A stretch of 64,000 bases of DNA, taken from the NCBI GenBank assembly GCA_964407105.1, contig CAYOUG010000001.1, forward strand, positions 96,227-160,226, written 5' to 3'. The translations under genes were made by a program, and so were the position numbers. Of the stretch, positions 4,405 to 64,000 are shown in pieces. Position 1 is the first letter of the stretch. The number at the start of each line of letters is the position of its first letter. The stretch is from an uncultured Candidatus Saccharibacteria bacterium (GTDB lineage: Bacteria; Patescibacteriota; Minisyncoccia; Phycocordibacterales; CALRHW01). Below the pieces are notes generated by a model, which worked only from the letters and a program-made list of their open reading frames with translations, did no database searches and was not told the DNA's origin.

Positions 4405-7101
4405 CTAGAATAAAGAGGAAACAAGGTTTACCACCCAACCAATACTATTAATTAGAGAATCAACAAAAGCTTGGAAACCACCACTTACTGCGGTCCATGC
4501 ATTCGCATACAAATGCGAGCTATCTGTTTGAGCATAAGCAACAATTGGATTTGGTGCGCTAGCATTCTGAATAATCCATAATCCTTGTTGAGAAACTGGG
4601 TTAGCAGGAGTATAAATTATTGCATTTTCGAAAGTAATAGTGTCACCTCCAGCAGAAAGAACCACTGAAGATGTGCCATCTGAACTTCCAGAATTTACTA
4701 TAATATTTGAAAGAGTTTGACCACCAGAAAGTTTTGGGGTAAATCGCCACACGTTGTGGTCGCCCACATTAGCACCGGTGTACATATAATCTGTATACCA
4801 ATCAGAAATATCATTATCTATCATTTCTACATTTTCATAACCAAGCATCAAATTTATTTCAGTAAGAACACTATTTAAAAGTGGTGCTCCATTTGATCCA
4901 TCTCCTGTCCAATAAATAAATTGATCGTTATTTGCAAGTGCGACATGCATAAGCATTTCTTGGTACAAATCAGAAGAAGCAACCTGACTTCCGGGGTACG
5001 CTTTATCAGTAACCCAAGTATGAAGATGTGCGCTGTTAGATAAGGCGGCAGATTTTGCCCAATTTGCATACAAACGGAAAGAATTGAAAGCATTCGGTGT
5101 ATAGTTTGGCAAACCAGCAGAATTCATTTGAGACGCTGATGCATTTAAATCTCCATAAGCAAACGGGCCTTGATGTGTACCTGGGTGTGCACCATTACCT
5201 GTTTTATATATATCCCAAGATCCACCATACGGAACGTTATAATTATCATTCCAATGAAGAAATCCGTACGAAGACATTTTTACATCTGGAAAATAATTTG
5301 TAGCAACATCAAAAATTGCTTCGTCCATATAACCAGCCATTCTATCAAATAGCCAATCATCATAAACACGAATATTCTCAAGAAAATCATTGAAATTTTG
5401 ACCTGTAGAGGTACAAACTTTTTGAACAAAATCATTTGGAAAAGGAAAATCTTCTGGTGGAAAACGTAGATCAGCCACTATTGCTTCACACCAACTTACT
5501 GGGCAATTTGCTCTATCGGCAACACACTTTGTTTGTATTCCAGCAAGATTCCATCCACCCTGTCCAGCAACTGGCTCATCATCATTAACAATAACATCAA
5601 TTTTTTTACCGGCATTTTTTATACCCAAAAAGAATGCCGTTAACCAATTTTGAGTAAAGTTTTTTCCTTCATCCCACCACAAACACGGCATTGGAGCATC
5701 AACAATACCAGCAGGAACTCCTGGGGAGGGTTGAACATGAGGAAGATTTGCGGCTGAAGTACCAGTAAGATCTAGATGCATTATTTGTGGCTCACCGGTA
5801 GTAGGATTCAAACACATATCTTTCCATGTATTTGTAGATAAGTCTTTGTAACTAAAGAGCCAATCTTCTACGTTTCTAAAACGTACAACTTTATGTCCTT
5901 CTGGTTGGTTTGCAATGAAATCGATGGTTTTAGTAATAGCACCATCAACCGGATTTGAAACATTTCCTCCACCAGCACCAACCCAATAGAAAGTAAACAC
6001 ATTCGTATATTGACCAGGAGGTATATCTGGCCACGAATACGCATAAATTTTTCTAGAAGCCACGTCCGTAGGTGGCCACGAAAGTGATCCTGTTATAGAT
6101 GATCCCACCTGTACGTCAGGACAATCTTTTTCATCTATATTGTTTATCGTCACTGACGCACTTTTAAGACCACTAGTTGAATATGTTTTAGTAACAGATG
6201 AAGCTGAACCCGAAAGTCCATCACTTCCATCCCATGAGTAAGTATATGGTGGTGTACCTCCACTTACTGTGGTGGAGTATGTTACAGAGCCGCCCACTGA
6301 TATTTGCGTAGCAGAAGCAGAACATGAAATATTGTAATTTAGAGCCGGGTTTTCATTTACCGTTACAGCACTTGAACATGGAATTGAAACACCGTTTATT
6401 TTTACTGTTGCATTTTTGTTGCCTTCTGAATTATATATCTTAGTAACAGATGAAGCTGAACCAGAAAGATTGTTGGTACCGCTCCATAAATATGTGTAAG
6501 AACCGATTCCACCACTTACACTTGCTGTCCATGTTACAGATTGGCCCTGAATAATTGTTGCAATAGACGGACTACATGATCCAGTAACACCACCTGGAAG
6601 TGGAACTGGAAGTGCTGGTGCCAATGGAAGCGCGGGGGTAGTTGGTCCACCACAAGAAAGAGATTGTATTTTTGCACGTGTTGCTGGACCGGCTACACCA
6701 AAACCATTGGTAGCTGGAGTACCTCCAGACACTAAACCTACACGTGCTTGAAATTTTTGTAATGCGCTTTGTGTGGCTGCACCAAAAAAACCGGTGATTG
6801 TAGGATATGTATAATCTCCCTGTGCTTTTAAAAACTTTTGTAATTTAGACACTTGTCCACCAGTCGATGCATCATTAAGACCTATATACAAATTTTGGGT
6901 CAGAACAAGACATGAGGCTTGTTGACTAAGTAGAGTAGAGAGTTGTTGTTGAAGTTGAGTAATAAGCACAAGTAAGGCTTGGATTTGAGCTTGTTCGGAG
7001 GCTGTTGTTGCAGAAGATGTGCGAGGAGAAAAAGAAATGGAGAAAATAAGTGTTCCCAAAAGCACCAAAATACACAGAAAAGAGATAACTATTTTTTTCA
7101 T
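4405..7101 (-). CDS. large secreted protein with a signal peptide, a peptidoglycan-binding-like domain, two PKD-like repeats and an uncharacterised W/Y/N-rich C-terminal domain of about 550 aa
   Basis: The N-terminal hydrophobic signal is 'MKKIVISFLCILVLL'. 'VSKLQKFLKAQGDYTYPTITGFFGAATQSALQKFQARVGL' fits PG_binding_1. The repeats are 'GGIGSYTYLWSGTNNLSGSASSVTK' and 'GGTPPYTYSWDGSDGLSGSASSVTKTYS'. Confidence 0.65.
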   Translation of the reverse strand: MKKIVISFLCILVLLGTLIFSISFSPRTSSATTASEQAQIQALLVLITQLQQQLSTLLSQQASCLVLTQNLYIGLNDASTGGQVSKLQKFLKAQGDYTYPTITGFFGAATQSALQKFQARVGLVSGGTPATNGFGVAGPATRAKIQSLSCGGPTTPALPLAPALPVPLPGGVTGSCSPSIATIIQGQSVTWTASVSGGIGSYTYLWSGTNNLSGSASSVTKIYNSEGNKNATVKINGVSIPCSSAVTVNENPALNYNISCSASATQISVGGSVTYSTTVSGGTPPYTYSWDGSDGLSGSASSVTKTYSTSGLKSASVTINNIDEKDCPDVQVGSSITGSLSWPPTDVASRKIYAYSWPDIPPGQYTNVFTFYWVGAGGGNVSNPVDGAITKTIDFIANQPEGHKVVRFRNVEDWLFSYKDLSTNTWKDMCLNPTTGEPQIMHLDLTGTSAANLPHVQPSPGVPAGIVDAPMPCLWWDEGKNFTQNWLTAFFLGIKNAGKKIDVIVNDDEPVAGQGGWNLAGIQTKCVADRANCPVSWCEAIVADLRFPPEDFPFPNDFVQKVCTSTGQNFNDFLENIRVYDDWLFDRMAGYMDEAIFDVATNYFPDVKMSSYGFLHWNDNYNVPYGGSWDIYKTGNGAHPGTHQGPFAYGDLNASASQMNSAGLPNYTPNAFNSFRLYANWAKSAALSNSAHLHTWVTDKAYPGSQVASSDLYQEMLMHVALANNDQFIYWTGDGSNGAPLLNSVLTEINLMLGYENVEMIDNDISDWYTDYMYTGANVGDHNVWRFTPKLSGGQTLSNIIVNSGSSDGTSSVVLSAGGDTITFENAIIYTPANPVSQQGLWIIQNASAPNPIVAYAQTDSSHLYANAWTAVSGGFQAFVDSLINSIGWVVNLVSSLF

Positions 7102-7198: not shown

Positions 7199-7271
7199 GC
7201 ACGTGTAGCTCAGTTGGTAGAGCGGTCGTCTTATACACGACTGGTCCCAGGTTCGAGTCCTGGCACGTGCA
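7199..7271 (+). tRNA. tRNA with anticodon UAU (isoleucine, AUA-decoding); CCA not encoded
   Basis: I folded it by hand. The acceptor GCACGTG/CACGTGC has 7 bp, the D-stem is GCTC/GAGC, and the anticodon stem is GTCGT/ACGAC with loop CTTATAC. The variable region is 5 nt. The T-stem is CCAGG/CCTGG with loop TTCGAGT, and the discriminator is A. Confidence 0.75.
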
Positions 7272-7401
7272 CAATGAGCAGGGCGAATTGTGCACGTGAG
7301 CAAGTGCCCAATGGCACTTGCGAACAGGACGAGAAAGGCTTTTCGTTATCGAGAGAGCGTACTCGCTTTCGAGATCGAAAAGTACCCGCGGCGGTAGCCG
7401 A

Positions 7402-9802: not shown

Positions 9803-10246
9803 ATGAGTTTAATCAGAAACAAAAAAGCTTCATTTGATTATGAAATCAGCGAAAAATTCACTGCCGGTATGGAGCTTTTTGGTTTTGAAGTAAAATCCTT
9901 GCGCGCCGGACAAGGTGCACTTGAAGGATCATACGTTACTGTGCGTGGTGGCGAAGCATATATTATCGGCATGCACATTCCCCCATTTCAACCCAAAAAT
10001 ACTCCAGATGATTATGATCCGCTACGCAATCGTCGACTTCTCCTAACAAAAAAAGAGCTTGAAACCCTCGCTGAAACAGAAAAAAAGAATGGTTTGACAA
10101 TAGTACCGATTTCAGTGTATAATAGCAAACGCAAGCTAAAAATAGAGCTTGGTATAGCACGCGGAAAAAAGAAATTTGATAAACGTGAAACGATTAAAAA
10201 ACGTGACACTGAGCGTGAGATACGACGAACATTGAAAAACATTTGA
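9803..10246 (+). CDS. smpB: SsrA-binding protein SmpB
   Basis: The protein reads 'KKASFDYEI...GFEVKSLRAG...YIIGMHIPPFQ' and has a basic C-terminal tail. Confidence 0.9.
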   Translation: MSLIRNKKASFDYEISEKFTAGMELFGFEVKSLRAGQGALEGSYVTVRGGEAYIIGMHIPPFQPKNTPDDYDPLRNRRLLLTKKELETLAETEKKNGLTIVPISVYNSKRKLKIELGIARGKKKFDKRETIKKRDTEREIRRTLKNI

Positions 10247-10255
10247 TTTACATAC

Positions 10256-10660
10256 GGGGATGATCGGCCTAGACAGGATATCAAATCATATATGTGCAAC
10301 GTAGAGCTTGAATACCTCTTAAAACTTTTCAAAATTCTAAGTGCAAACAACTTAGTTACAAAAGCAAAGTCAGTTGTCTCTCCATATTTTGGAGCAAAGG
10401 ATTTTACTTTCGCTTACGCAATAGCCTAAGCGACGTCACGTGAGCTGTTGTTCGATTGGCTCATTGTGGTGTTATATCATCGAAATAGAATGTGTGGTGT
10501 TTCGACACACATTTGAAATTAATTGAAAATAGGAGTGTGGCGGTTTTGTCTGTTTCATACGCCCCATTCCGAAATCGCCGTTAGGCGAAGAAACTTTCTA
10601 CACGTTGTAGACTCATATGTGATCATGTTCTGCACGGCGGTTCGATTCCGCCCATCTCCA
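10256..10660 (+). ncRNA. ssrA: tmRNA (ssrA); resume codon GCA at 10343; tag reading frame 10343..10429, encoding ANNLVTKAKSVVSPYFGAKDFTFAYAIA
   Basis: The 5' end is GGGGAUGAUCGGCCUAGACAGGAU. The 3' T-arm is GGCGG-UUCGAUU-CCGCC, and the acceptor 3' strand CAUCUCC plus A pairs with the 5' end, including the G3:U70 alanine identity pair. 'UAAGUGCAAACAAC' resembles the E. coli resume context, and the frame ends at UAA. The gene lies immediately downstream of smpB. Confidence 0.8.
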
Positions 10661-11264
10661 CTAGACACGAATTTTGAGCCTCTGGGAGGGTAAATACTCT
10701 TAGGGGTAGCGACAGAATAGCGGTTTCAAACCCGCTATTTTTGTTGTATGCCAACAGTTCCTGAAATACAAGCCTTAAAACCAGTCTTTTTTGGTGAATA
10801 TTACCTTTTTTCCATTTATCTAAAGGGTTCTTCAGAAAATCAAAAACAATATCTAATGCGGTTTCAATGTTTGGTTTGAGTGAATCAAAAGACACGATAG
10901 AACTTTTTAAAACCATTTCTTTTTCTGCGATCTCACTCAATCGTTTCTCATAAACAGTCACCACGTTATCATCCACAGCTCTTGTAAGCCTTCCTAGCAA
11001 TCGGTTACGCTCGATTTCGAGTTCCGCCAACTCATCAAAAATTTGTCTTTTCTTGGCGGCAATTCCTTTCTCTTTACTTTGCCAAACATCTTCAACAATT
11101 TTCTTTGTAAGACTTAATACCGTCTTGCTTGGTTTAATTCTCCATAAGATATCTAAAAACTTCTTTTCCATTACATCTCTATGAATACTTTTATTTCTCT
11201 GGCTACAGCCAGTTTGATTACATCGAAAGTAGGGCTTTTTATGCCTCAATAGCACTATAACCAA
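10623..11264 (-). pseudogene. large serine recombinase, C-terminal fragment only (zinc ribbon, coiled-coil and C-terminal subdomain); the catalytic resolvase domain is missing
   Basis: 'LLRHKKPYFRCNQTGCSQRNKSIHRDVMEKKFLDIL' resembles the LSR zinc-ribbon region. 'KRQIFDELAELEIERNRLLGRLTRA' is coiled-coil, and 'KRLVLRLVFQELLAY' resembles the LSR C-terminus. The frame has no upstream ATG or catalytic domain. Its last 13 codons overlap the tmRNA 3' end. Confidence 0.5.
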
Positions 11265-12703: not shown

Positions 12704-13417
12704 TCACCGACGACGTCTATATGTGAACATTCCAAGAACAAACAAACCGAGTGCTGATGGACCAGGAACTGTCGAACCGACTGAATCGATCCAGACTTCA
12801 CCTGACCCCATATTGAAATTTACAAAACCGATCGTATCAAAACCCGTAAACGATGGACCCCCATAGAAAGCGATCCAACTGGTCCAGGAGCCTTCATTCA
12901 ATCTGTATCGAGCCGATGCGTCTTGAGAACGCCACTCGATAGTGACGAGGTTCCAGATGTTGTCGGTATAGTCATCGAAACCAACATAAACATCCAGAAC
13001 AGGGTCAATGTAGGCGACCTGACCGCTTTTCATGAACGCCAAAGTCGCTCTCGACGGACCGTCCCACGAATCCTGAAAGAGACCGAGCTGAAAATTCTCG
13101 CCGATGCTGTAGTCTCCCCATTCAGAGTGGTTCACTGTCCGAACGTAAAACGACTGACTCCCATCTGCCAGTGAAACATCACCAGTCTTGGTAATGACAC
13201 TGTCGGCAAATTGATTGCTGCTTCCGATGGCTTCAGTCCCATCAATGCCGATGCCGTCCTGAACCAACCAGGTTTCACCATTGGCCCGATCGAACCAGTC
13301 TCCCTGCCCCACTACTGGTCCACTGACGTAGGAATTGAAATTATCCACGACAATGGAAGCTTGAGCATTCGTAGCCAAAAGAAAAAGCCACATAACGACA
13401 ATCACAATCATTTTCAT
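12704..13417 (-). CDS. secreted protein with a C-terminal PEP-CTERM-like sorting signal, in a GC-rich gene
   Basis: The signal peptide is 'MKMIVIVVMWLFLLATNAQA'. The extreme C-terminus 'VPGPSALGLFVLGMFTYRRRR*' has a Pro-rich motif, a hydrophobic helix and an Arg cluster. GC is visibly higher than in the flanks. Confidence 0.5.
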   Translation of the reverse strand: MKMIVIVVMWLFLLATNAQASIVVDNFNSYVSGPVVGQGDWFDRANGETWLVQDGIGIDGTEAIGSSNQFADSVITKTGDVSLADGSQSFYVRTVNHSEWGDYSIGENFQLGLFQDSWDGPSRATLAFMKSGQVAYIDPVLDVYVGFDDYTDNIWNLVTIEWRSQDASARYRLNEGSWTSWIAFYGGPSFTGFDTIGFVNFNMGSGEVWIDSVGSTVPGPSALGLFVLGMFTYRRRR

Positions 13418-15162: not shown

Positions 15163-15729
15163 TTAATACTTTCTAACCACACCTTTTACTACAGCCGCAA
15201 TACGAAAACTTTCGCGTGGATATATCGGTTTATAATTTTTATTAGCGGGTTCGAGCCATATTTTTCCAGCCTTAATACGATAAAATTTCATTGTCCACCC
15301 ACCATCTACTTCTGCAATGACAATATCGCCGTCGCGCGCATATTCACGTTTCTCCGCAACCACCATGTCTCCTTCTCGTATTCCCTCTTCTATCATTGAG
15401 TCTCCCTTTACTTCAAGTAAATATGTATTACCTTGATCTTCAATAAGTAACTCATCGAGACTCAATGTATCGAGTGCTTCTGCTTCTGCAACAGAAGGAA
15501 TACCAGCTTCCACCAAACCAAGGACAGGAACTTGGTCAAACATATGCTTTGGAATAATTTTTCCACGGTCGTCTTTTTCAACAACACCTGCGTCGACAAG
15601 TTTGTTGATGAGCTTATAAACAGCATTTTTAGATTTGAAACCAACAAGAGACATGATCTCTTGATAGCTCGGCATACGCCGATGTTTTTTATAAAATGCT
15701 GTAATTTTTTGGAAATACTCCTCTTGCAT
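15163..15729 (-). CDS. lexA: LexA repressor
   Basis: It has an N-terminal wHTH, the cleavage-site region 'VEAGIPSVAEA', and the S24 Ser/Lys dyad ('KGDSM' ... 'MKFYRIK'). Confidence 0.9.
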   Translation of the reverse strand: MQEEYFQKITAFYKKHRRMPSYQEIMSLVGFKSKNAVYKLINKLVDAGVVEKDDRGKIIPKHMFDQVPVLGLVEAGIPSVAEAEALDTLSLDELLIEDQGNTYLLEVKGDSMIEEGIREGDMVVAEKREYARDGDIVIAEVDGGWTMKFYRIKAGKIWLEPANKNYKPIYPRESFRIAAVVKGVVRKY

Positions 15730-17572: not shown

Positions 17573-18025
17573 CTAGATTTTGTGAGGTTCGCCGTGATTG
17601 CGGCAAGGACTATGTGGTGAATGACCACCACAGTCACAGGTATTTGATCGGCCGAGATTACGACAGGAACCGAGTTTCTCACAATCACAGGTATGTGGTC
17701 GACCAAGATGTGATCCGTCTTCATGTGTCGCACCACCATGCGCGTTGTTTGCCGATGGTTGGCGACATGACAAGTCATCGAACAACGGAGTCTCTTGGAT
17801 CTCTGTGGTTGCAGCGAGTAGAGTCCCCGCCGCTTTAAATAGAGCCCGATTCAATTCTTCTGAACTCCCTTCGGCGATCTGTCTGAGTTCTTCTGGGGTG
17901 GCCCGTCTTGACGCTAGCGCCACCAAAACCCGCCTAGCAATCAATAGTCCCCAAAACGCCATCTCGCAACTCTCAGCTCTTTGCTTTGGCATTTTGTTAA
18001 GCTCAACACTATCACTACCGCCCAT
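17573..18025 (-). CDS. Cys/His-rich hypothetical protein in a GC-rich island
   Basis: AGGAGG lies 6 nt upstream of the ATG at 18025. The C-terminus is 'HTCDCEKLGSCRNLGRSNTCDCGGHSPHSPCRNHGEPH'. The region is clearly GC-richer than its neighbours. Overlapping ORFs on the opposite strand look less gene-like. Confidence 0.4.
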   Translation of the reverse strand: MGGSDSVELNKMPKQRAESCEMAFWGLLIARRVLVALASRRATPEELRQIAEGSSEELNRALFKAAGTLLAATTEIQETPLFDDLSCRQPSANNAHGGATHEDGSHLGRPHTCDCEKLGSCRNLGRSNTCDCGGHSPHSPCRNHGEPHKI

Positions 18026-36518: not shown

Positions 36519-37091
36519 TCACTTGGATGTGTCAGCTTGGTCCAGTGAGCGGTCCAACTCTTCTCGCGCGGCCTTCTGCGAAGCTTGGAGCCAATCCGTC
36601 CAAGATGTCCACTGCGAAGATGGGAGCGGTGGCTTGAGAACAAGCAGTTTGTCGCCCCCTAGTCGCTTCGCGGTGGAACCGGTCAACACCATCACCACAT
36701 AACGCACCGGGTGATGATTCAGCTCTTCAAGCATGCTCCCCGTATTGCGCGGAGACATTTTACACCTGGTCATATGACTCCACGGCTTCCAGAAAACTGG
36801 CGGTCGAACCATCTCAAGATCAGAATTAAGCCACACATCACTCTTCCCCACCAGCAGTACTCCAAGTACAGCGTGATGACCCAGCTCGTGGAAACCCGCA
36901 GGGCGCACATACATATCCGACAAGGTTGCCGGTCGCACCTTGATTGAGCGGATCTTGTTGGGATAGAAAGCAAGCCATGGTAGCCTTGCCCTATATCCCT
37001 CCAGACCAGTCCCAGAAAGAGGTTCGAGTTCGTATATCTCATTGAACATTTTCTCGATTTCTGGTGAAAAAAAATACTCTGGGTAAATCAT
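36519..37091 (-). CDS. HExxH zinc metallopeptidase-like protein (possibly ImmA/IrrE-M78-like), in a GC-rich gene
   Basis: The motif is 'YVRPAGFHELGHHAVLGVLL'. AAGGAG lies 8 nt upstream of the ATG at 37091. A TTGACA-containing promoter lies upstream. GC is markedly higher than in the flanking str-operon spacer. Confidence 0.5.
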   Translation of the reverse strand: MIYPEYFFSPEIEKMFNEIYELEPLSGTGLEGYRARLPWLAFYPNKIRSIKVRPATLSDMYVRPAGFHELGHHAVLGVLLVGKSDVWLNSDLEMVRPPVFWKPWSHMTRCKMSPRNTGSMLEELNHHPVRYVVMVLTGSTAKRLGGDKLLVLKPPLPSSQWTSWTDWLQASQKAAREELDRSLDQADTSK

Positions 37092-37291
37092 TCCAAATCT
37101 CCTTCGTGGCACAGCCACTTTGTAGAAGCGCACAGCACTTCATAAGTAAAGAACGGGTAAAGCACGGCTTTACCGCCAAAAACATAATATAACAAAAGTA
37201 TATTTTGTCAAATAGAATTACCGCCGGTATCACGAGGTTTCTTTATAACTTCTTTAGGGAAACTTTAGGAAATATATGATTCTATTTAGGG

Positions 37292-42172: not shown

Positions 42173-42784
42173 TCAGGTGCTCTGTTGAGAGAAAGAGGTT
42201 TCATCAACAGCCACGAAAAGTTGATACCGACCAAACCGCCAGAATGGATCATGGAAAGTGCCGGAGTTTACACTCCAACCACCAAACCATCCCGGACGCC
42301 AAAACACAAAAACCGGGCAAAGCACACCTGCGTGGTTTAACACAGGAAAGATGTTCAGATCACCATTTGTTCTGAGAACACCCGCCTTACCCTTTCTTTG
42401 CGCTTTCATCAAAAAGTAGACCTGAGCAAGGCCGGTGCGGTGGTTTTCTCCCAAAACAACGGGTTCGTTGGTCTCAGGAAGTGGTTTGGACACAAAGCAA
42501 ACGAGAATACTCGCCTGACTTGGTTCTTCTACCACCCCTCCAAAGTTTGCAACAAAACGCTTGCCTCGGTCTACAATTTTGACTCCCGTGAAGAGATTCC
42601 GCCCCCGCACGAAATTGCGCCTAACAACAAACTCTTCTTTGATTCTCGGTACCACAACCGGAGACAGATCTCTTAGGGTAATTGGTTCCGAATTCAAAGA
42701 TGCTGTTTTTGGCACAGTCTGATTATCAGACACTGAACGCAGGAATTCGCGCCACGAGCGCAGATCTCCAATACTCATACTCAT
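42173..42784 (-). CDS. hypothetical protein in a GC-rich island
   Basis: AAAGGAGGTG lies upstream of 'MSMSIGD'. The start was placed by ORF-track arithmetic, with an uncertainty of about 3 nt. I recognised no domain. GC is higher than in the neighbours. Confidence 0.4.
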   Translation of the reverse strand: MSMSIGDLRSWREFLRSVSDNQTVPKTASLNSEPITLRDLSPVVVPRIKEEFVVRRNFVRGRNLFTGVKIVDRGKRFVANFGGVVEEPSQASILVCFVSKPLPETNEPVVLGENHRTGLAQVYFLMKAQRKGKAGVLRTNGDLNIFPVLNHAGVLCPVFVFWRPGWFGGWSVNSGTFHDPFWRFGRYQLFVAVDETSFSQQST

Positions 42785-42887
42785 TTTCCACCTCCTTTCT
42801 TTTTGTGGATGAATTTTAGTATGTTCTAATATAGGAGTATACACGATAAAGAATCATTTAAAATGGGTAGGTGTGAATATGAAATAA

Positions 42888-46247: not shown

Positions 46248-46913
46248 ATGACCAAACTTGAACGCCTGTTCTTTGATGGTAGGGTGTCACCACTACTCTT
46301 GAGATTGTGGTGCCCAATAGATGGTCACAAAATGGTGAAGATGTGGTACAAGAACAGAAATGAGGGGGCGTTCTTCTCAATCATCTTCTTGTTTTGTACG
46401 GCTTTCTTTGTTTTCAAGTACATTACAACTTCTACTATTTTTTGGCACAACGGTGATTTTGGCACCTCCAGCATCAGCCTGCTCGAATTGGGGTTGATCT
46501 GTATCCCTTACGCCATGTTTGGTTTTTCTGGACTTTTCGTGTTCAAAATGCTTTTACGCAACCTCCACTACAAAACAGATCCATTCGAAGACGTAAGCAA
46601 ATTCCCTGATACTAAATTCTTTGACGCCTGCGACAGGCTAGCAGAGATTTTAGAAATTAGCACCGCAGGATACGCGAGCAAGGAGTGGATCAGACAAGCA
46701 GTAGACACACATCTCGTAAGAATCGGTCGACATGTGGTCGATGAAGAAAAGAGTGGAGTAAGAGACTCTGAAACATTAGAAGAAAACCGAAAAAAAATGA
46801 GAGAAGATCACAGCTTTCTGGTAGATAATTTTCCAGCGGTTGTGGACGGAACCTTCAATAGATATTACCAAATAGCAGAAGAAAAATGGGCTGAGGAAAA
46901 CAGCCCAACTTAA
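46248..46913 (+). CDS. membrane protein (2 TM helices), hypothetical, in a moderately GC-richer gene
   Basis: AAGGAA lies upstream of the ATG. A terminator lies at 46946-46982. Confidence 0.45.
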   Translation: MTKLERLFFDGRVSPLLLRLWCPIDGHKMVKMWYKNRNEGAFFSIIFLFCTAFFVFKYITTSTIFWHNGDFGTSSISLLELGLICIPYAMFGFSGLFVFKMLLRNLHYKTDPFEDVSKFPDTKFFDACDRLAEILEISTAGYASKEWIRQAVDTHLVRIGRHVVDEEKSGVRDSETLEENRKKMREDHSFLVDNFPAVVDGTFNRYYQIAEEKWAEENSPT

Positions 46914-57161: not shown

Positions 57162-58916
57162 TTATTCTGATACCACACGCAAAATTTCTTCTATTGTTGT
57201 GTGACCTTGTACCGCTTTAAACATTCCGTCTTCAATCATAGTAAGCATACCTTCTTCTTTGGCGACCTTTTCTATTTCTTTGTCTGTTTTTCCTTGCATC
57301 ACAAGCTCTTTTATAGCGGGTGACATTTTAAATACTTCATAAATTCCTACACGACCAGAAAAAGCTTCATCTGTATCCATTCCAGCTTTTGGTCTATAAA
57401 GAGGAATTTTGTCCCACGTTACTTTGCCCTCAACGATTTTTTCATCTTTCAAAAACTTAAGCACACGATCAAGATCAATGGTTTTTTTGAGAGTTTCGAT
57501 TTCAGCTGAAGAAAGAAAATATTTTTCTTTCTTTTCGGTTAATTTTCGCACGAGACGTTGAGCGATAACGATACTGACTGTTGAAACAATCAAAAACGGT
57601 TCGACCTTCATATCCATAAGTCTAGGAATGGCACCTGCTGCACTATTTGTATGAAGAGTTGAGAGCACCAAATGTCCAGTAAGTGATGCATTCACCGCGA
57701 GAGACGCTGTTTCATTGTCACGAATTTCACCCACCATAATGATGTCTGGATCTTGACGCACGAGTGTTCGCAAACCGTTGCTAAAAGTGAGACCTATTTC
57801 AGATTTTACTTGTGTTTGATTTACACGTTCCATCTGATACTCCACAGGATCTTCAATAGTAGAAATATTTACGTCTGGTGTATTTAAAATATCCAAAAGA
57901 GTATAAAGTGTGGTGGTTTTTCCAGAACCAGTAGGACCGGTGGTAAGAATCATACCGGTTGTAAGACTTGATGCTTTATGAATTTGTTCTAAAGCTTCTC
58001 CATGAAAACCAAGAACTTCCAAAGTAAAACCGGAAGCAGATTCTCGAAGTAAACGCATCACTATTTTTTCACCATAATAAATTGGAAGTGTTGAAACACG
58101 AAACGACACTTTTTCACTATTCATATCAGTTTTAAAACGTCCGTCTTGTGGTAAACGCTTTTCATCAAGTTTAAGATTTGAAAGAACCTTAATACGCGCG
58201 CTAATACTTGGACCAATATTTTTAGGCAGTGTCATGGCATCATGAAGCATACCGTCTATTCGATAGCGTACCACCACCTGATTTTCAAGTGGCTCGATAT
58301 GGATATCAGATGCATTTTGAATAATGGCGTGCTTTAAAAGAGTGTCCACAATACGCACCACCGGCATATCTTCTGCAAGTTTTTTTAGATCGCCCTCAGA
58401 AATATCTTCGCCCAAATCTCCTTCAGCAACAGTTTTAAGTGATGTCGCCTCTTTTTGAATAATGTCTCCAAATTCCGCTTTAAGACTTTTTTGATACTGC
58501 AAAAGTGCACTTTTCATTGACTCGCTGTCGGTCAAACGTGGCAAAATTTTTAACCCAACTTTCTTTTTAACAAAATCAATAGTGGTGAGATTGGCGATAT
58601 CGAGCATGGCTACCTCGAGGCCTGCAGAAGTTTTTTTGAAACTCACAACATTGTGATTGCGAGCAATCGGCTCAGGAATAAGAGCAAGTACATCAAAGTC
58701 AAGTTTTTGTCCTTTGAGATCAACAAAAGGAATACCTAAAATGTGTGCGTGAATACGACGTAAATCATCTTCACTTATTTTTCCATTACTTACTAGAATT
58801 TCACCAATACTTTGTTCATTTTTTTCAGATTCTTTTTCTGCTTCAGCTAAATCAGCTTTGGATACAAGTCCGGCGTCGATTATAAAATCTTTAAATTGTT
58901 TTTCTTCAATGTGCAT
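57162..58916 (-). CDS. pilB: type IV pilus assembly ATPase PilB (GspE family)
   Basis: It has a GSPII_E N-domain, Walker A 'TGPTGSGKTTTLY' and Asp/His boxes. Confidence 0.9.
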   Translation of the reverse strand: MHIEEKQFKDFIIDAGLVSKADLAEAEKESEKNEQSIGEILVSNGKISEDDLRRIHAHILGIPFVDLKGQKLDFDVLALIPEPIARNHNVVSFKKTSAGLEVAMLDIANLTTIDFVKKKVGLKILPRLTDSESMKSALLQYQKSLKAEFGDIIQKEATSLKTVAEGDLGEDISEGDLKKLAEDMPVVRIVDTLLKHAIIQNASDIHIEPLENQVVVRYRIDGMLHDAMTLPKNIGPSISARIKVLSNLKLDEKRLPQDGRFKTDMNSEKVSFRVSTLPIYYGEKIVMRLLRESASGFTLEVLGFHGEALEQIHKASSLTTGMILTTGPTGSGKTTTLYTLLDILNTPDVNISTIEDPVEYQMERVNQTQVKSEIGLTFSNGLRTLVRQDPDIIMVGEIRDNETASLAVNASLTGHLVLSTLHTNSAAGAIPRLMDMKVEPFLIVSTVSIVIAQRLVRKLTEKKEKYFLSSAEIETLKKTIDLDRVLKFLKDEKIVEGKVTWDKIPLYRPKAGMDTDEAFSGRVGIYEVFKMSPAIKELVMQGKTDKEIEKVAKEEGMLTMIEDGMFKAVQGHTTIEEILRVVSE

Positions 58917-58952
58917 AAAATAAATTTAGAATGTACGTACATTTAGTATAGC

Positions 58953-58990
58953 AAAAAAAAATACGTATCTGTGTGGATACGTATTTTTTT
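58953..58990. terminator. bidirectional rho-independent terminator
   Basis: The perfect 9-bp stem ATACGTATC / GATACGTAT is flanked by an A-run and a T-run. Confidence 0.7.
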
Positions 58991-59009
58991 ATTTAAAATT
59001 TTTATTTAA

Positions 59010-59942
59010 TTAAATTGCTGAACCGTTGACTTGAATTGAGGAGTTTAATTCTGAAAGTATCGGTTGTATATTGGTTGTGTCAAAAGTACTGGAAGCACCA
59101 CCAGCTAACGATGCATTCGAATAAGCTTTTGGCGCGTATCCGGTTCGTGTAAACGTACCTTCACTAGCATCAGCACCAACTGGAATTCCAGACACAGAAA
59201 GATCAACATAAATCTTTATAGGAGAACTTGTTAGGTTTGTTACTCTATATTGATGCCCAGAACCACCACCAGAAGATGAAACACCTATATATGTTATAGA
59301 AAAAATAGAAGGTGTACCACCGATACTATTGGTTGGGCTAGCTGGCTGAACACCACTAAAGTTTGACATTGTTGCAAATTGTAAACCGCCAGAAGGCCAA
59401 ACAGTACGACAATCAACAACTCCTCCAGGAGCCATACAAAGACCTGTTCCTTGCACCTGTCCTTCTGCTATAACCTTTCCATTGGCTTCATAAAGCATAG
59501 AATTACCAAGTGTGGCTGTATTCGTAAACTTTGCAATTCTATTTACTGTTCCAGATCCACCCATTCCTCCACTGCCTCCGGTAGGCCAACCAGTAATACA
59601 AGGATCTGTTCCAATACAAAAACCTGAAGCTCTAACATTGCCGCTCACATGAACTTTTTCTGTTGGAGCTAAAACACCAAAACCAATACGGCCTGTTGGA
59701 ACATAAAGAGCCATATCAGTTGCCGTGACACCTGAACCAACAATCAAACCTCCGAGTTTAGTTTGAGCTGATCCGCCCACATGAAGTGGTGCATCACAAC
59801 CCGAAGTTCCTGTTGGACAATCAGGAGGTGAACCTGGTGGATTCGTCCACGCAGAAATAGTGGTAATGCCAGCGCTTAGTATGAGCGCGAGTATTAATAT
59901 TTTTAGATTGTTGATTATGTGGTTTTTTGTAAATGTGTTCAT
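59010..59942 (-). CDS. secreted Gly/Ser/Thr-rich protein, hypothetical
   Basis: It has a signal peptide. It also has 'RIGFGVLAPTEKVHVSGNV', reminiscent of the tail-fibre-like 'VGIGTxxPxxKLxVxG' motif. Confidence 0.5.
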   Translation of the reverse strand: MNTFTKNHIINNLKILILALILSAGITTISAWTNPPGSPPDCPTGTSGCDAPLHVGGSAQTKLGGLIVGSGVTATDMALYVPTGRIGFGVLAPTEKVHVSGNVRASGFCIGTDPCITGWPTGGSGGMGGSGTVNRIAKFTNTATLGNSMLYEANGKVIAEGQVQGTGLCMAPGGVVDCRTVWPSGGLQFATMSNFSGVQPASPTNSIGGTPSIFSITYIGVSSSGGGSGHQYRVTNLTSSPIKIYVDLSVSGIPVGADASEGTFTRTGYAPKAYSNASLAGGASSTFDTTNIQPILSELNSSIQVNGSAI

Positions 59943-59977
59943 GATATTGATATGTTTGTAATAAATTTATTGTAACA

Positions 59978-60298
59978 TTATTTTGCACTCATTGACTCTT
60001 GTAATTTCACACTTTGCTCTGGCGACAACACACTTTTACCTTTTGCCGTCATTTCTTTCTCAAGCTGTTTCTTTTGTTCATCAGTAATTACCGATGGACC
60101 TTTTGCAGACATGCTTTCCAAAAGAAGCTGTTCTGAAGATGGGACATTTTGATCTACAACATCCTGCTTCTTTTTAAACACCGTCACCAAAGCGATAATA
60201 ATAATAAGACAAGCAATAAACACAAGAATCCACTTTATCTTGTGATGATCTAGTGGCGCTAGTGTAGGAGTAAGAGAATTGTTATTTGTATAATCCAT
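59978..60298 (-). CDS. small membrane-anchored protein with three tandem repeats of about 17 aa
   Basis: It has a TM anchor followed by 'EQLLLESMSAKG', 'EQKKQLEKEMTAKG' and 'EQSVKLQESMSAK'. Confidence 0.45.
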   Translation of the reverse strand: MDYTNNNSLTPTLAPLDHHKIKWILVFIACLIIIIALVTVFKKKQDVVDQNVPSSEQLLLESMSAKGPSVITDEQKKQLEKEMTAKGKSVLSPEQSVKLQESMSAK

Positions 60299-60309
60299 AA
60301 TTTCTTTAA

Positions 60310-62418
60310 TTAAAATTCAATAATGTTGGGTTGAACCACTACCGTAACCTGAGGAGCACAGTCCACCGTCTTTACTTGTTGTGGTACCGAACTGTCTCTA
60401 ATGGTTACAGATGCTATTTTATTTCCTGTTGTTGAATATGTTTTTGTAACAGATGCTGAAAATGCATCTTCTCCCAAATTATCTGTACCATCCCATGTGT
60501 AAGAAAATGGTGCCAGACCACCAGAAGTGATCGAAGCTGTCCACGTAACAAATTTGTTTACTAAATACGGTGCCTGCCCACTTGGCACACAAGAAGCCAC
60601 AATAGGAGGATAGACAGGAGACGGCACGGTTACACCAACGTTAACCTCTTCTACGTCACCCTGTACATCATCTGGCGCACCAGTAACACGAAGGGTGTAT
60701 AGTGCTGACTGCGCATTTGCTGGTACAGAAACAGAAATAATACTTGAGCAGTTTGGGCTACAAGTAGCATTAGACAAAATCGAAGCACTTGGAATAAATC
60801 TGAAACCATTTGGATTAAGAATTGTGGCAGTGATTTTTACTGGTTTTGTAGCTCCCATATCAAGTATTCTGGTAACTGTGGTGGTATTACTTTGACCTTT
60901 TTCTATTGTTAGATTTAAAGGATTTGCAGAGAGATGATAATCAAATGTAGTAGAAGGCGCTCCGTATGTCACGGTGTGATTTTCGCCACTAAAATTTAAC
61001 CAACCGAGCACTTCTCCTCCCCACGCCCAACCCACCAAACGTGCTGTTGGAGGGTGGTAAGTCACACCCTTAGAACCATCTATATATGCCGCACCAGAAG
61101 GATTGTTGGCACCAGAAAGACTGATCCAACCATCAAACCCTGGAGTAAGATCACCAGTAAGAATTTTTCCCCAACCCTTAAATGTTCCACTCGTAGGAGT
61201 AAGACTGGTCAACTCTGCATTTCCACTAAAAGTACCATTTCCTGTTGGAAAATTAGAAAGTCCACCAAATTTAATCCAACCAAGATGATCATTCCACGCA
61301 CTACCAGTCATGGTACCAGCACCGGCTGGTACATTTGCATTATTATTATTGTTTGTATTATTTATTCGCACACCATAAGAGGTCGTTTCACAGCTTCCTA
61401 AGTCTGGTAAACCATCGAGTGGCGCCACATCAGAACAACTATTCATTTTTATCCAGCCAACATTAGAAGACCAAGCCCAACCGTATACGTTGCCCACTTC
61501 TGGTACCGATACAGGTATACATGCGCCGTTTGAAAATGTATATCCAGAATTACAAGTATATTCACATTTTGGCGCTCCACATGATGCTACAAGTGTTTTT
61601 GCTGTATCTACTGTGAGTCCAGCATCGTCATTAGTACAAAGTCCGGAGTTGGCAGGAGTAGCACCAAAACAAGAGAAATTTCCGGGTGGTGTCTCTGGTG
61701 GGTTTACGGGAGATAATTCACGCCAAGGACCATATATACCCTGGCAATTATCATAGTTTCTCACACCAACCTTTACAGGCTGAGGACTTCCTGAACCAAA
61801 AGAAATATTAAATGGTCCTGTTATTGTGGCATTTGAGAGTGGGAAATAACCATCAAAAAGAGCATAATTTGGTATTATTTCGTTATCAAGATCTTGGGTT
61901 GCAAGCACAACTCGCAAATTGTGATGATCTCCAAAACCATTTTTGGGTGGTGCAGGAATCGTAACATTTATGGTGTCACCATCAATAAAATAACCCTCTA
62001 GAAAGTATGGTGGAGCAGGAACTTCGTTTGTACAATTCATATCAAGACACACACCGTACGCTGGACACCCCAAACCAGGATCTACCATGGTGCACACAGT
62101 ACTTCCAAATGGATCACAGTCTAAATTATCATCACACTCAAAATCATGGTCTATACAAGCTGGCGGCATTGGCTGACATGTACCAAAATGACCTTGAGAA
62201 CAAGTACCGTCTCCACCAACACAATTACCAGATTGACAATCTAGGTCAGAACCACAAAGAGCACCGTTAAATCCCCCATAATAACATCCGAGTTTTATTT
62301 GAGCCGTAACATTTGGGGTAGAAAAAATAACGGCAAAACCAATTAAAGAAAAAGCTAAAACAATCGAAAGAAAAAGATGGAGTTGATTTCTAGTAATTTT
62401 TTTTAAAATATTAAACAT
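60310..62418 (-). CDS. large secreted protein with a Cys-rich N-terminal module and a C-terminal PKD-like repeat
   Basis: It has a signal peptide and about 30 Cys in 'CYYGGFNGALCGSDLDCQSGNCVGG...CPAYGVCLDMNC'. The C-terminal 'PFSYTWDGTDNLGEDAFSASVTKTYSTTGNKIASVTI' is shared with the 4405..7101 protein. Confidence 0.65.
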   Translation of the reverse strand: MFNILKKITRNQLHLFLSIVLAFSLIGFAVIFSTPNVTAQIKLGCYYGGFNGALCGSDLDCQSGNCVGGDGTCSQGHFGTCQPMPPACIDHDFECDDNLDCDPFGSTVCTMVDPGLGCPAYGVCLDMNCTNEVPAPPYFLEGYFIDGDTINVTIPAPPKNGFGDHHNLRVVLATQDLDNEIIPNYALFDGYFPLSNATITGPFNISFGSGSPQPVKVGVRNYDNCQGIYGPWRELSPVNPPETPPGNFSCFGATPANSGLCTNDDAGLTVDTAKTLVASCGAPKCEYTCNSGYTFSNGACIPVSVPEVGNVYGWAWSSNVGWIKMNSCSDVAPLDGLPDLGSCETTSYGVRINNTNNNNNANVPAGAGTMTGSAWNDHLGWIKFGGLSNFPTGNGTFSGNAELTSLTPTSGTFKGWGKILTGDLTPGFDGWISLSGANNPSGAAYIDGSKGVTYHPPTARLVGWAWGGEVLGWLNFSGENHTVTYGAPSTTFDYHLSANPLNLTIEKGQSNTTTVTRILDMGATKPVKITATILNPNGFRFIPSASILSNATCSPNCSSIISVSVPANAQSALYTLRVTGAPDDVQGDVEEVNVGVTVPSPVYPPIVASCVPSGQAPYLVNKFVTWTASITSGGLAPFSYTWDGTDNLGEDAFSASVTKTYSTTGNKIASVTIRDSSVPQQVKTVDCAPQVTVVVQPNIIEF

Positions 62419-62541
62419 ATTTAATTATCAATATTAATACCTGCCGTGTTAAGCACTGTTAGTAAATTTAGTATAACACAAGAAAAATTCGTGCTCATTT
62501 TTACATACACAAAAAAGTGGATAAGAACAGCTAAAATATCG

Positions 62542-62570
62542 AAGTATTGACTTTTTACTGTTTTTGGTAT
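62542..62570 (+). repeat. promoter module copy 1 (AAGTATTGACTnnnnnACTGTTTTTGGTAT, followed by TATAAT)
   Basis: It is near-identical to 63197-63225. TTGACT is followed 17 nt later by TATAAT. Confidence 0.55.
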
Positions 62571-62642
62571 ATAATTGTAATAGTAGATAGTTTGTTCGTT
62601 GTCGTCACTTTTGTCTTTTTTTCTCTTTTCTAGGAGATACTC

Positions 62643-63089
62643 GTGCTTTCGAGAAATAGAAAAATTGGTCTGTGGTGTTGGTTTGTGACGGTGATTTTTA
62701 CCGTCACATTTTTTTCCGTAACGCTGTGGATCATCGATATCCACAAGCCTCACCCAGCACAGAAAATCGTCGGAAACGACGCGGGAGGGTTTCTGACATT
62801 GGTCAAAACCCACGGAACACGGTACGAAGGAACGTACCTGTTCAAGGAAGGGAAAGAGTTCAGCGAGATTGTCTTAAGAATCGAGGGTGGGTATGTTCCC
62901 AACCCAGAACAGATCAGTACGATCTGTTTCGACGAATTCTCTAAAGCTTCCCTGAAATCTTTCTCTCCAGCCTGGATTGAAATCGTTTTTAAGGACGATG
63001 GAAATCCATCGATCACCACATCGATGACGGTGCCGGACTCCAACCCAATACCCGACGGCGAAAGAAGAAAGCTCATCATCGGAAAGTGA
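62643..63089 (+). CDS. small TM-anchored/secreted protein, hypothetical, in a GC-richer gene
   Basis: It has a GTG start with AGGAG 7 nt upstream and an N-terminal TM segment. Confidence 0.5.
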   Translation: MLSRNRKIGLWCWFVTVIFTVTFFSVTLWIIDIHKPHPAQKIVGNDAGGFLTLVKTHGTRYEGTYLFKEGKEFSEIVLRIEGGYVPNPEQISTICFDEFSKASLKSFSPAWIEIVFKDDGNPSITTSMTVPDSNPIPDGERRKLIIGK

Positions 63090-63096
63090 TGGAACG

Positions 63097-63152
63097 GTGC
63101 TGAATACCACCTTAAACTATTCACAAGCCTGCGTAACAACGTGGGCTTTTTT
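63097..63152 (+). repeat. 3' UTR/terminator module copy 1 (GTGCTGAATACCACCTTAAACTATTCACAAGCCTGCGTAAC... hairpin, T6)
   Basis: A 41-nt identical stretch is shared with 63794-63834. Confidence 0.6.
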
Positions 63153-63196
63153 GTTACAAAAATTAATAAAAAATGATTAAAAAATGCAAACAGTAA

Positions 63197-63225
63197 AAGT
63201 ATTGACTAATTACTGTTTTTGGTAT
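63197..63225 (+). repeat. promoter module copy 2
   Basis: It reads AAGTATTGACTaattACTGTTTTTGGTAT. Confidence 0.55.
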
Positions 63226-63281
63226 CTATTTGTATGAGTAATTCGGCAGTTCTTCGTTTCATCACAAACCCAGGAGAAAAC

Positions 63282-63770
63282 ATGCGTCTCAATAAAATCT
63301 TGGTTGGTTTGGTTTTTGTGTTGGGTACACTGTTGGCCGGCAACATTCTTACAAGTCACAGTTTTCTTTGGAATAAACAAAAACGCCCAGAAAAGATGTT
63401 AGCTGCAAGTGGCGAGGGGGTCTTGTTTCTCTGTAAATATACCAATCCCGTTTGGGGTGATTCTTGGGAAGGATTCTTTTTTTTGCAGAAGGGATGGGAA
63501 TCATTTGATGTGTTAGTAGAAACTAACGGCCAAAACATCAAAACAGGAAGCAAAAAGGTTGGCTATGTAGAGTCCTTAAACCTTCATGAGGTTTGCTCAA
63601 CAGAGCTCGAAAAAGCAACGGGGGTCGAAGAAAAAGTTGTTTGGATAAAAATCAGGTTAACCGAAGAAACAAAATATTCGGTAATCACAGCAACAAGAAA
63701 AAAGGATGTTCCACCAAACGGTCCATTACCACCAACAATCATCACAGAGAGATCTGATTTAACGCCTTGA
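63282..63770 (+). CDS. small TM-anchored/secreted protein, hypothetical
   Basis: AGGAGAAAAC lies upstream of the ATG at 63282. It has a signal/TM segment 'MRLNKILVGLVFVLGTLLAG'. Confidence 0.5.
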   Translation: MRLNKILVGLVFVLGTLLAGNILTSHSFLWNKQKRPEKMLAASGEGVLFLCKYTNPVWGDSWEGFFFLQKGWESFDVLVETNGQNIKTGSKKVGYVESLNLHEVCSTELEKATGVEEKVVWIKIRLTEETKYSVITATRKKDVPPNGPLPPTIITERSDLTP

Positions 63771-63793
63771 GATTTCAATAATCAAAGATTGTT

Positions 63794-63847
63794 GTGCTGA
63801 ATACCACCTTAAACTATTCACAAGCCTGCGTAACGACGCAGGTTTTT
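63794..63847 (+). repeat. 3' UTR/terminator module copy 2 (perfect CCTGCGT-AACG-ACGCAGG hairpin, T-run)
   Basis: It has the same 41-nt module as copy 1. Confidence 0.6.
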
Positions 63848-63896
63848 CTTTTTATTGTGATATCATAGATTTTATATAATTATTAACATTGACTAT

Positions 63897-64000
63897 TATG
63901 CAATTTAAAAGAACAACCTATTTATTATTCGTATGTGTTGGTTTCATTGTAGTATCTTCTCTTATTACCGGTTCAAATAATGTAAATTATTTGACATCGA
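63897..64000 (+). CDS. 5' part of a third small secreted-protein gene (signal peptide MQFKRTTYLLFVCVGFIVVSSLITG...); runs off the window
   Basis: An ATG is followed by a hydrophobic signal sequence. A TTATTG...TATAAT promoter lies upstream. Confidence 0.4.

Follow-up and report, generated by a model that had tools for sequence, protein, structure and literature searches.

Near the 3′ end of a 64-kb stretch of Patescibacteria chromosome (contig CAYOUG010000001.1; the whole stretch is referred to as the window), two small genes, here called P1 and P2, stand one behind the other with nearly the same non-coding sequence around each of them: a 29-nt promoter block in front and a 41-nt block behind. 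Does this arrangement represent an array of cassettes, in which constant regulatory modules are reused around unrelated exported proteins, as an earlier reading made from the letters of the DNA (the sequence-only reading) had proposed, or did the flanks and the genes descend together from one unit? Our analysis led to the second answer. What we see is a tandem duplication of the ordinary kind, in which the control regions are unusually well kept, rather than a system that shuffles unrelated genes. We consider it fairly probable that a whole transcription unit was duplicated in tandem long ago and that its regulatory flanks have been under constraint.

Two adjacent units with the same promoter block and 3′ block

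The 41-nt block, GTGCTGAATACCACCTTAAACTATTCACAAGCCTGCGTAAC, occurs exactly twice in the window, at 63097-63137 and 63794-63834, both times on the + strand, and the two copies are identical at 41/41 positions. No further match with three or fewer mismatches was found in the 64 kb, where 100 shuffles gave an expectation of 0. As had been noticed in the sequence-only reading, each copy follows one of the two genes and runs into a terminator hairpin. The promoter block is likewise present in two copies, at 62542-62570 and 63197-63225, in the form AAGTATTGACT-N4-ACTGTTTTTGGTAT, in which the 25/25 fixed positions out of 29 nt are identical between the units. The two copies and the total length of 29 nt agree with the initial description of this block, but the gap of five nucleotides given there does not, since the N5 form matches nothing. 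No third copy of the promoter block was found within the window. The repeated modules are real and non-random. Dispersed extragenic repeats of the REP or MITE type have many copies in unrelated intergenic regions; both copies of the 41-nt block in the 64 kb lie at homologous positions behind paralogous genes. The two units, 62542-63154 and 63197-63851, are adjacent and both on the + strand, and their homology reaches into the flanks, where it includes the promoter, parts of the 5′ untranslated region (5′UTR) and the 3′ element.

Relationship of the P1 and P2 proteins

The P1 coding sequence (62643-63089, +, GTG start and TGA stop) encodes 148 aa, and that of P2 (63282-63770, +, ATG start and TGA stop) encodes 162 aa. 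Both open reading frames (ORFs) have an AGGAGA ribosome-binding site (62632-62637 and 63272-63277, respectively) and an N-terminal hydrophobic helix, in keeping with their initial description as small proteins anchored by a transmembrane (TM) segment. The same description took the two proteins to be unrelated, which did not hold. BLASTP aligned P1 with P2 at E=1e-6; the alignment, 121 columns long and located outside the TM segment, has 23% identity. The Smith-Waterman score of the two ectodomains was 76, compared with 27.3±4.8 in shuffles, of which 0/2000 reached 76. Judged from these alignments, P1 and P2 are divergent paralogues, i.e. they represent the ordinary tandem gene duplication against which the sequence-only reading had set its array. 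Of the proposed cassette duplication or shuffling, the duplication stands, as a unit composed of promoter, 5′UTR, ORF, 3′UTR and terminator was duplicated in tandem; the shuffling does not, because the ORFs are paralogous rather than unrelated.

AlphaFold models of P1 and P2, built from their shared shallow alignment, were of modest confidence (predicted local distance difference test, pLDDT, of 69 and 61.5). The topology common to the two models is a TM helix followed by β4-α-β2, to which P2 adds a short second helix and an additional C-terminal strand. The N-terminal regions of the two proteins differ. Fold searches gave no functional assignment, and neither protein had a match in Pfam.

Saturation of silent sites and constancy of the flanks

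When the two units are aligned, the coding regions show near-random identity, followed by an abrupt return to 41/41. At the 40 aligned residues that are identical in P1 and P2, the codon is the same in 17 cases, whereas 18.8 would be expected from local codon usage, and third positions are identical in 27% of 135 aligned codons. Because codon sharing is at expectation and third-position identity is this low, the silent sites are fully randomised. With the synonymous sites saturated, the identity of the flanks (41/41 in the block and 25/29 positions in the promoter) is therefore not neutral. The flanks have been held constant whether the units are old residents or one of the coding regions was imported, and the cause of their identity would be selection.

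The promoter region

The promoter of unit 1 (62542-62575, +) consists of the −35 element TTGACT (62547-62552), a 17-nt spacer and the −10 element TATAAT (62570-62575), which together match the sigma-70 consensus at 11/12 positions. In unit 2 (63197-63230, +) the −35 element (TTGACT, 63202-63207) and the spacer are as in unit 1, and TCTATT (63225-63230) stands at the −10 position. In the alignment of the units, conservation extends through the −10 and start-site region as a mosaic (...GGTAT-TA-TTGTA--AGTA), and parts of the 5′UTR and the AGGAGA ribosome-binding site also match. Short conserved blocks with interspersed changes are the pattern left by selection, whereas conversion would give a single tract. 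A shared operator, by which the two genes would be switched together, is probably located in the unusual conserved spacer and start-site region.

An imperfect inverted repeat, AAGTATTGACTAATTACT / AGTAATTCGGCAGTTCTT, brackets the −10 region (62542-62599 in unit 1 and 63197-63254 in unit 2). Its arms are complementary at 78% of positions in unit 2 and at ~61%, by hand count, in unit 1, and a dimeric regulator might bind at the conserved TTACT...AGTA cores, which make a candidate operator. The window encodes a LexA homologue at 15163-15729; the promoter inverted-repeat region contains no canonical SOS box.

The 3′ element

The 3′ elements of the two units (63097-63154 and 63794-63851, both +) begin with the 41-nt block, within which lies a 6-bp hairpin, UGAAUA/UAUUCA, with the 11-nt loop CCACCUUAAAC (63101-63123 in copy 1 and 63798-63820 in copy 2). 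A 10-bp terminator hairpin (63125-63148 and 63822-63845) and a T tract follow in both copies, and both were found by a terminator scan. The 60-nt 3′ segments fold at z −2.3 and −3.7 relative to shuffles. The 41-nt block contributes only the 5′ arm of the intrinsic terminator. The 3′ arm differs between the copies (ACGTGGGC versus ACGCAGG), and both versions pair with the invariant 5′ arm. In copy 1 this pairing uses two G-U pairs, which are possible only in RNA of the + strand, and this argues that the + strand transcript is the object of selection. A GTAACAA/TTGTTAC palindrome is present in copy 1 only.

The block is thus a conserved sequence that lies directly upstream of the intrinsic terminator of the mRNA and shares it, as expected of a 3′UTR element. 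Most likely, the ~60-nt 3′ end acts at the RNA level, as a shared element for 3′-end stability or for regulation. The shared post-transcriptional control site that the sequence-only reading had offered as a second explanation stays viable in this form, given 41/41 identity next to saturated synonymous sites. No Rfam 15 family was matched at its gathering threshold; the best match, Leu_leader, scored 24 bits against a gathering score of 50 and reflects terminator resemblance only.

The identity of the block could also be explained if it encoded protein. A small ORF starts from the GTG that opens the block (MLNTTLNYSQACVTT...); its length is 27 aa in copy 1 and 24 aa in copy 2, and the first 15 residues are the same in both. 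However, no conserved Shine-Dalgarno sequence precedes the start, the 7 nt upstream of it vary freely, and the C-terminal halves differ between the copies. Moreover, the frame crosses the terminator hairpin and the T tract, so that terminated transcripts would have no stop codon. We regard a coding function as the least probable of the explanations considered, with next to no weight.

Presence and absence of unit 2 in related strains

The organism is rare in public data. When P1, P2 (as 162 and 178 aa) and three proteins encoded nearby were looked up by exact match, the yield was limited to two short Logan contigs, L001 (SRR12487045) and L002 (DRR274965). L001 is 100% identical to the window over 58889-63126 and ends at 63126, exactly where an assembler with k=31 would have to stop if two different sequences preceded the block in the sample. 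L002 is ~2% divergent, with 65 mismatches in 3167 nt that occur in patches: along the window positions 59974-63140, 47 mismatches fall in 60898-61762, 1 in 61763-62706 and 14 in 62707-63096. In the gene for a 702-aa protein upstream of P1, L002 differs from the window by 43 synonymous and 4 non-synonymous changes. Such patchiness resembles a mosaic produced by recombination in the population.

The order in L002 runs from P1 over a single 41-nt block directly to gene 3, the ORF that lies downstream of P2 in the window. What comes after this block, the copy-2 terminator arm and gene 3, matches the window sequence behind copy 2 at 207/207 positions. The 7 nt that separate the P1 stop codon from the block differ by 4 transitions in L002, and the block itself by 0. 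Unit 2 is therefore a precise 697-bp presence/absence difference between strains (63138-63834, +; bounded by the 41-nt direct repeats, the register within the repeat being arbitrary), with breakpoints inside the repeats. The simplest history would be a deletion in the L002 lineage by recombination between the repeats; a deletion is favoured over an insertion because P2 is far too divergent for a recent duplicate.

That this indel shows the repeats to recombine is one of the observations that speak for concerted evolution without function, in which gene conversion or repeated unequal crossing-over would homogenise the flanks, and the blocks would be merely a promoter and a terminator. Recombination is also active in the population, as seen from L002, where the divergent patch gives way to ~940 nt with a single mismatch, and the 41-nt identity is contiguous and has sharp edges. 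On the other hand, conversion can begin only where there is homology in the flanks, and to either side of the blocks the sequence has been randomised. The conservation of the promoter is interrupted and follows its elements instead of forming one tract, and the 3′ arm of the terminator has diverged with its pairing in the RNA kept. Homogenisation of this kind seems to us unlikely, although it has the greatest weight among the rival explanations.

A unit that consists of an ORF and a structured 3′ repeat, and that is present or absent with breakpoints in the repeat, also resembles an integron cassette. In a site-specific system of the integron type, the 41-nt block and the hairpins would be the attachment site for a recombinase. 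Integron cassettes are normally promoterless and depend on a common Pc promoter, with an intI integrase gene adjacent, whereas each of the two units has its own strong promoter. There is no long imperfect attC-like palindrome common to both copies, nor the R″/L″-L′/R′ architecture of attC, and a scan of 38 window ORFs brought up no recombinase, integrase or transposase. The contents of the units are homologous to each other. We consider such a system very improbable. An origin of the locus from a phage or a plasmid was rejected as well, there being no match in the phage or plasmid collections.

Composition and coding potential of the P1 region

The difference in composition between the two ORFs that the sequence-only reading pointed out is real. 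P1 has a GC content of 0.47 and a GC content at third codon positions (GC3) of 0.57, and the values for P2 are 0.41 and 0.38; the window mean of GC3 is 0.28 (standard deviation 0.07). Because P1 is compositionally odd, there is room for a history of import or allele stacking, in which P1 and P2 would be divergent circulating alleles of one variable surface-protein locus that came to stand in tandem in one strain. The conserved flanks would then be homology arms for allelic replacement, and the coding part of P1 would come from a donor of higher GC. The GC3 of P1 and P2 relative to that of the genome is in line with this history, and so are the difference between strains in the presence of the locus, the mosaic divergence between them, and the pilus and surface-protein genes that adjoin it. 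Against it, searches of 5.8 billion clusters and 1.84 billion representatives brought up neither a third allele nor any homologue, the P1 allele of L002 is the same one (98% identity), and such flanks are missing from several other orphan genes of high GC3 in the window. We rank allele stacking second among the rivals and think it improbable.

The GC3-rich orphan ORFs (GC3 0.42-0.56) are located at 12704-13417 (−), 17573-18025 (−), 36519-37133 (−), 42173-42844 (−) and 46248-46913 (+). They are scattered among core genes, including a position between the EF-Tu-like and EF-G genes, have no Pfam match, and are unrelated to P1, P2 or one another. The product of 12704-13417 has a PEP-CTERM-like tail, i.e. 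a hydrophobic stretch followed by RRRR. Together with P1, these ORFs may form a class of imported genes, or some of them may not be real genes.

Two antisense ORFs extend over the whole of P1, at 62421-62813 (−, 130 aa) and 62750-63139 (−, 129 aa), and they were the choice of the gene caller on L001. We do not accept them as genes, since unit 2 contains nothing that corresponds to them and the substitutions between the window and L002 favour the P1 frame on the + strand, in which 7 are synonymous and 3 non-synonymous. The antisense ORFs were judged to be an artefact of the high GC3 of P1, and their choice by the gene caller on L001 probably explains why the exact-protein match for P1 failed.

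About 40 nt into the P1 coding region (62684-62715, +) there is a strong terminator-like structure with an 11-bp stem, TGTGACGGTGA-TTT-TTACCGTCACA, followed by T7. It spans codons 14-25 of the TM segment and corresponds to nothing in P2. The 53-nt stretch around the stem folds at −17.2 kcal/mol (z −3.9 relative to shuffles), and the change C62707T in L002 preserves the pair as G-U. The stem may serve for attenuation or premature termination, or it may simply result from palindromic VTV...TVT coding.

Extent of the series and distribution of its parts

The third gene that had been assigned to the array does begin just downstream; its ATG is at 63898 (+) and its N-terminus is hydrophobic. It runs off the window at 64000; L002, which continues for 234 nt beyond the window end, makes 112 residues readable. 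Because it lacks the promoter block and does not resemble P1 or P2, gene 3 lies outside the repeated series, and for this reason we count two units in the sequence available. A search for its homologues returned only itself or near-identical strain variants.

The same was true of P1 and P2, for which the search of 5.8 billion clusters gave only the query proteins themselves or near-identical strain variants. A HMMER profile of P1 and P2, run against 1.84 billion representatives, recovered P1 and P2 at E values of 3e-84 and 3e-68. A third profile match, a 2832-aa repeat protein with E 9.5e-9, was discarded as spurious, since its matches are 15 short repeats. We also collected 79 Patescibacteria loci anchored on PilB (1.24 Mb, PilB identity ≤79%), in which tblastn found no homologue of P1 or P2, blastn-short found no block, and a covariance model of the 3′ element found no match; a marginal covariance-model match in one of them (L073) proved to be a plain terminator. 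The modular series envisaged in the sequence-only reading thus gains no further members, either in the 64 kb or in the 79 related loci. K-mer searches with a 22-mer and a 21-mer from the modules gave 0 matches in genome, viral and metagenome contig collections. In the literature, we found nothing specific to this arrangement in Patescibacteria.

Genomic setting

The 64-kb window is ordinary chromosome of a Paceibacteria/Parcubacteria-like bacterium, with genes for EF-G, SmpB and transfer-messenger RNA (tmRNA), ComEC, RecJ, PGK, TIM, LexA and FtsH. A type IV pilus cluster (PilB, PilC and pilins) ends just upstream of the P1/P2 locus, and the gene for the 702-aa secreted protein is transcribed divergently from P1. 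The best identity of PilB to any species-representative genome is 78-79%. No relatives of the 702-aa protein were found in metagenome contigs.

The P1/P2 locus lies in a surface-protein-rich region beside the type IV pilus genes. Two large secreted proteins encoded in the window have PKD-like domains, namely the 702-aa protein (60310-62418, −) and an 898-aa protein (4405-7101, −), and their genes have in common a ~55-nt DNA repeat (family D1, 64-76% identity; 6146-6452 and 60401-60455). The 702-aa protein contains repeated GWAW..GWIK motifs, and gene 3 contains a GAWDWDG motif. Elsewhere in the window there are a tRNA-Ile gene with anticodon TAT (7199-7272, +) and, at 9803-10661 (+), the SmpB gene directly followed by a 406-nt tmRNA gene, the tag peptide of which is unusually long at 28 residues (ANNLVTKAKSVVSPYFGAKDFTFAYAIA).

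Discussion

How could two units come to differ almost everywhere in their coding regions and remain the same at their ends? We propose that one complete unit for a small membrane-anchored or secreted orphan protein was duplicated in tandem long ago. The coding regions would then have diverged to ~23-30% amino-acid identity, with saturation of the synonymous sites, as the exposed domains evolved freely. Purifying selection would have kept the promoter with its conserved spacer and start-site region, and also the ~60-nt 3′ end, with its small hairpin, fixed 11-nt loop and intrinsic terminator. As a by-product, direct repeats of 41 nt would have been retained 697 bp apart, between which recombination could remove or restore one unit, giving rise to the copy-number differences between strains.

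Several observations weigh against this proposal. The contiguous identity of 41/41 would also fit conversion or a recent recombination junction. Only two copies of the elements and two or three strains are available, so that they offer neither a covariation test nor an independent lineage for conservation. The GC3 of P1, compared with the mean, is odd for an old resident and hints at an imported coding part. Pairing of the 41-nt block with the 5′UTRs of the units themselves was no better than that of shuffles. Finally, L002 is a short de Bruijn contig, and the join in it may be an assembly shortcut through the repeat, which a low-coverage loss of both unit-2 branches could produce.

The closest parallel to an old duplication of this kind is provided by co-regulated pairs of tandem paralogues. 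As in such pairs, two neighbouring genes point the same way, homology covers the proteins, the promoter, the remnants of the 5′UTR and the terminator, and the copy number changes by recombination between repeats. The P1/P2 pair differs from them in the extreme contrast between saturated coding sequence and non-coding identity of 41/41 and 25/25 nt, and in that its proteins form an orphan family with two known members only.

The 3′ element can be compared with small RNAs derived from 3′UTRs, of which CpxQ and DapZ in enterobacteria are examples, and of which FarS, from the fabB 3′UTR of Vibrio cholerae, is reportedly another. As in these RNAs, the block is fused to the upstream side of a Rho-independent terminator, is better conserved than the preceding ORF, and has the layout of a small hairpin, a single-stranded stretch and a terminator. 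Unlike them, the element described here is known from its sequence, with no processed RNA, target or chaperone assigned to it; it is present in two copies behind paralogous genes and not at one conserved locus, and it was not found outside the lineage.

Families of variable surface proteins with constant flanks are known from the vsp/vlp/vsa loci of Mycoplasma and from pilE/pilS of Neisseria with its 3′ Sma/Cla repeat. The P1/P2 locus resembles these systems in its tandem paralogues for exposed proteins, which differ strongly in coding sequence and hardly at all in the non-coding flanks, in the variation of unit content by strain, and in its position next to pilus genes. In contrast to them, both units have a complete promoter and ribosome-binding site and neither is a silent copy, the signal region at the N-terminus is not conserved, the coding sequences lack internal repeats, and no recombinase or inversion sites were seen. 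P1 and P2 also differ from pilins in lacking the N-methylation motif.

A bolder reading would make the promoter and the 41-nt block portable modules of a surface-protein variation system of Patescibacteria, with, in addition, a two-copy regulatory RNA derived from the 3′UTR. Units of divergent exposed proteins could then be gained, lost and exchanged between strains by recombination at constant flanks, and more of them could exist elsewhere in the genome. To our knowledge, neither flank-mediated surface-protein variation nor a 3′UTR-derived RNA of this kind has been described in Patescibacteria, and we hold this reading to be improbable.

The main value of the analysis is one of correction: what had been taken for a modular array of cassettes with unrelated exported proteins is a single pair of tandem paralogues. 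As such, it offers a clean example from nature of how cis-regulatory sequence has outlasted the coding sequence it serves. The 3′ element stands out as notably sharp, and strains differ in whether they carry the unit. The locus thereby marks a candidate operator, as well as a 3′ RNA element that may be functional, in a phylum for which there is almost no knowledge of gene regulation. In these epibiotic bacteria, regions with pilus and surface-protein genes are thought to mediate contact with the host, and it is in such a region that a surface-protein gene is gained or lost at the strain level through a 41-nt repeat.

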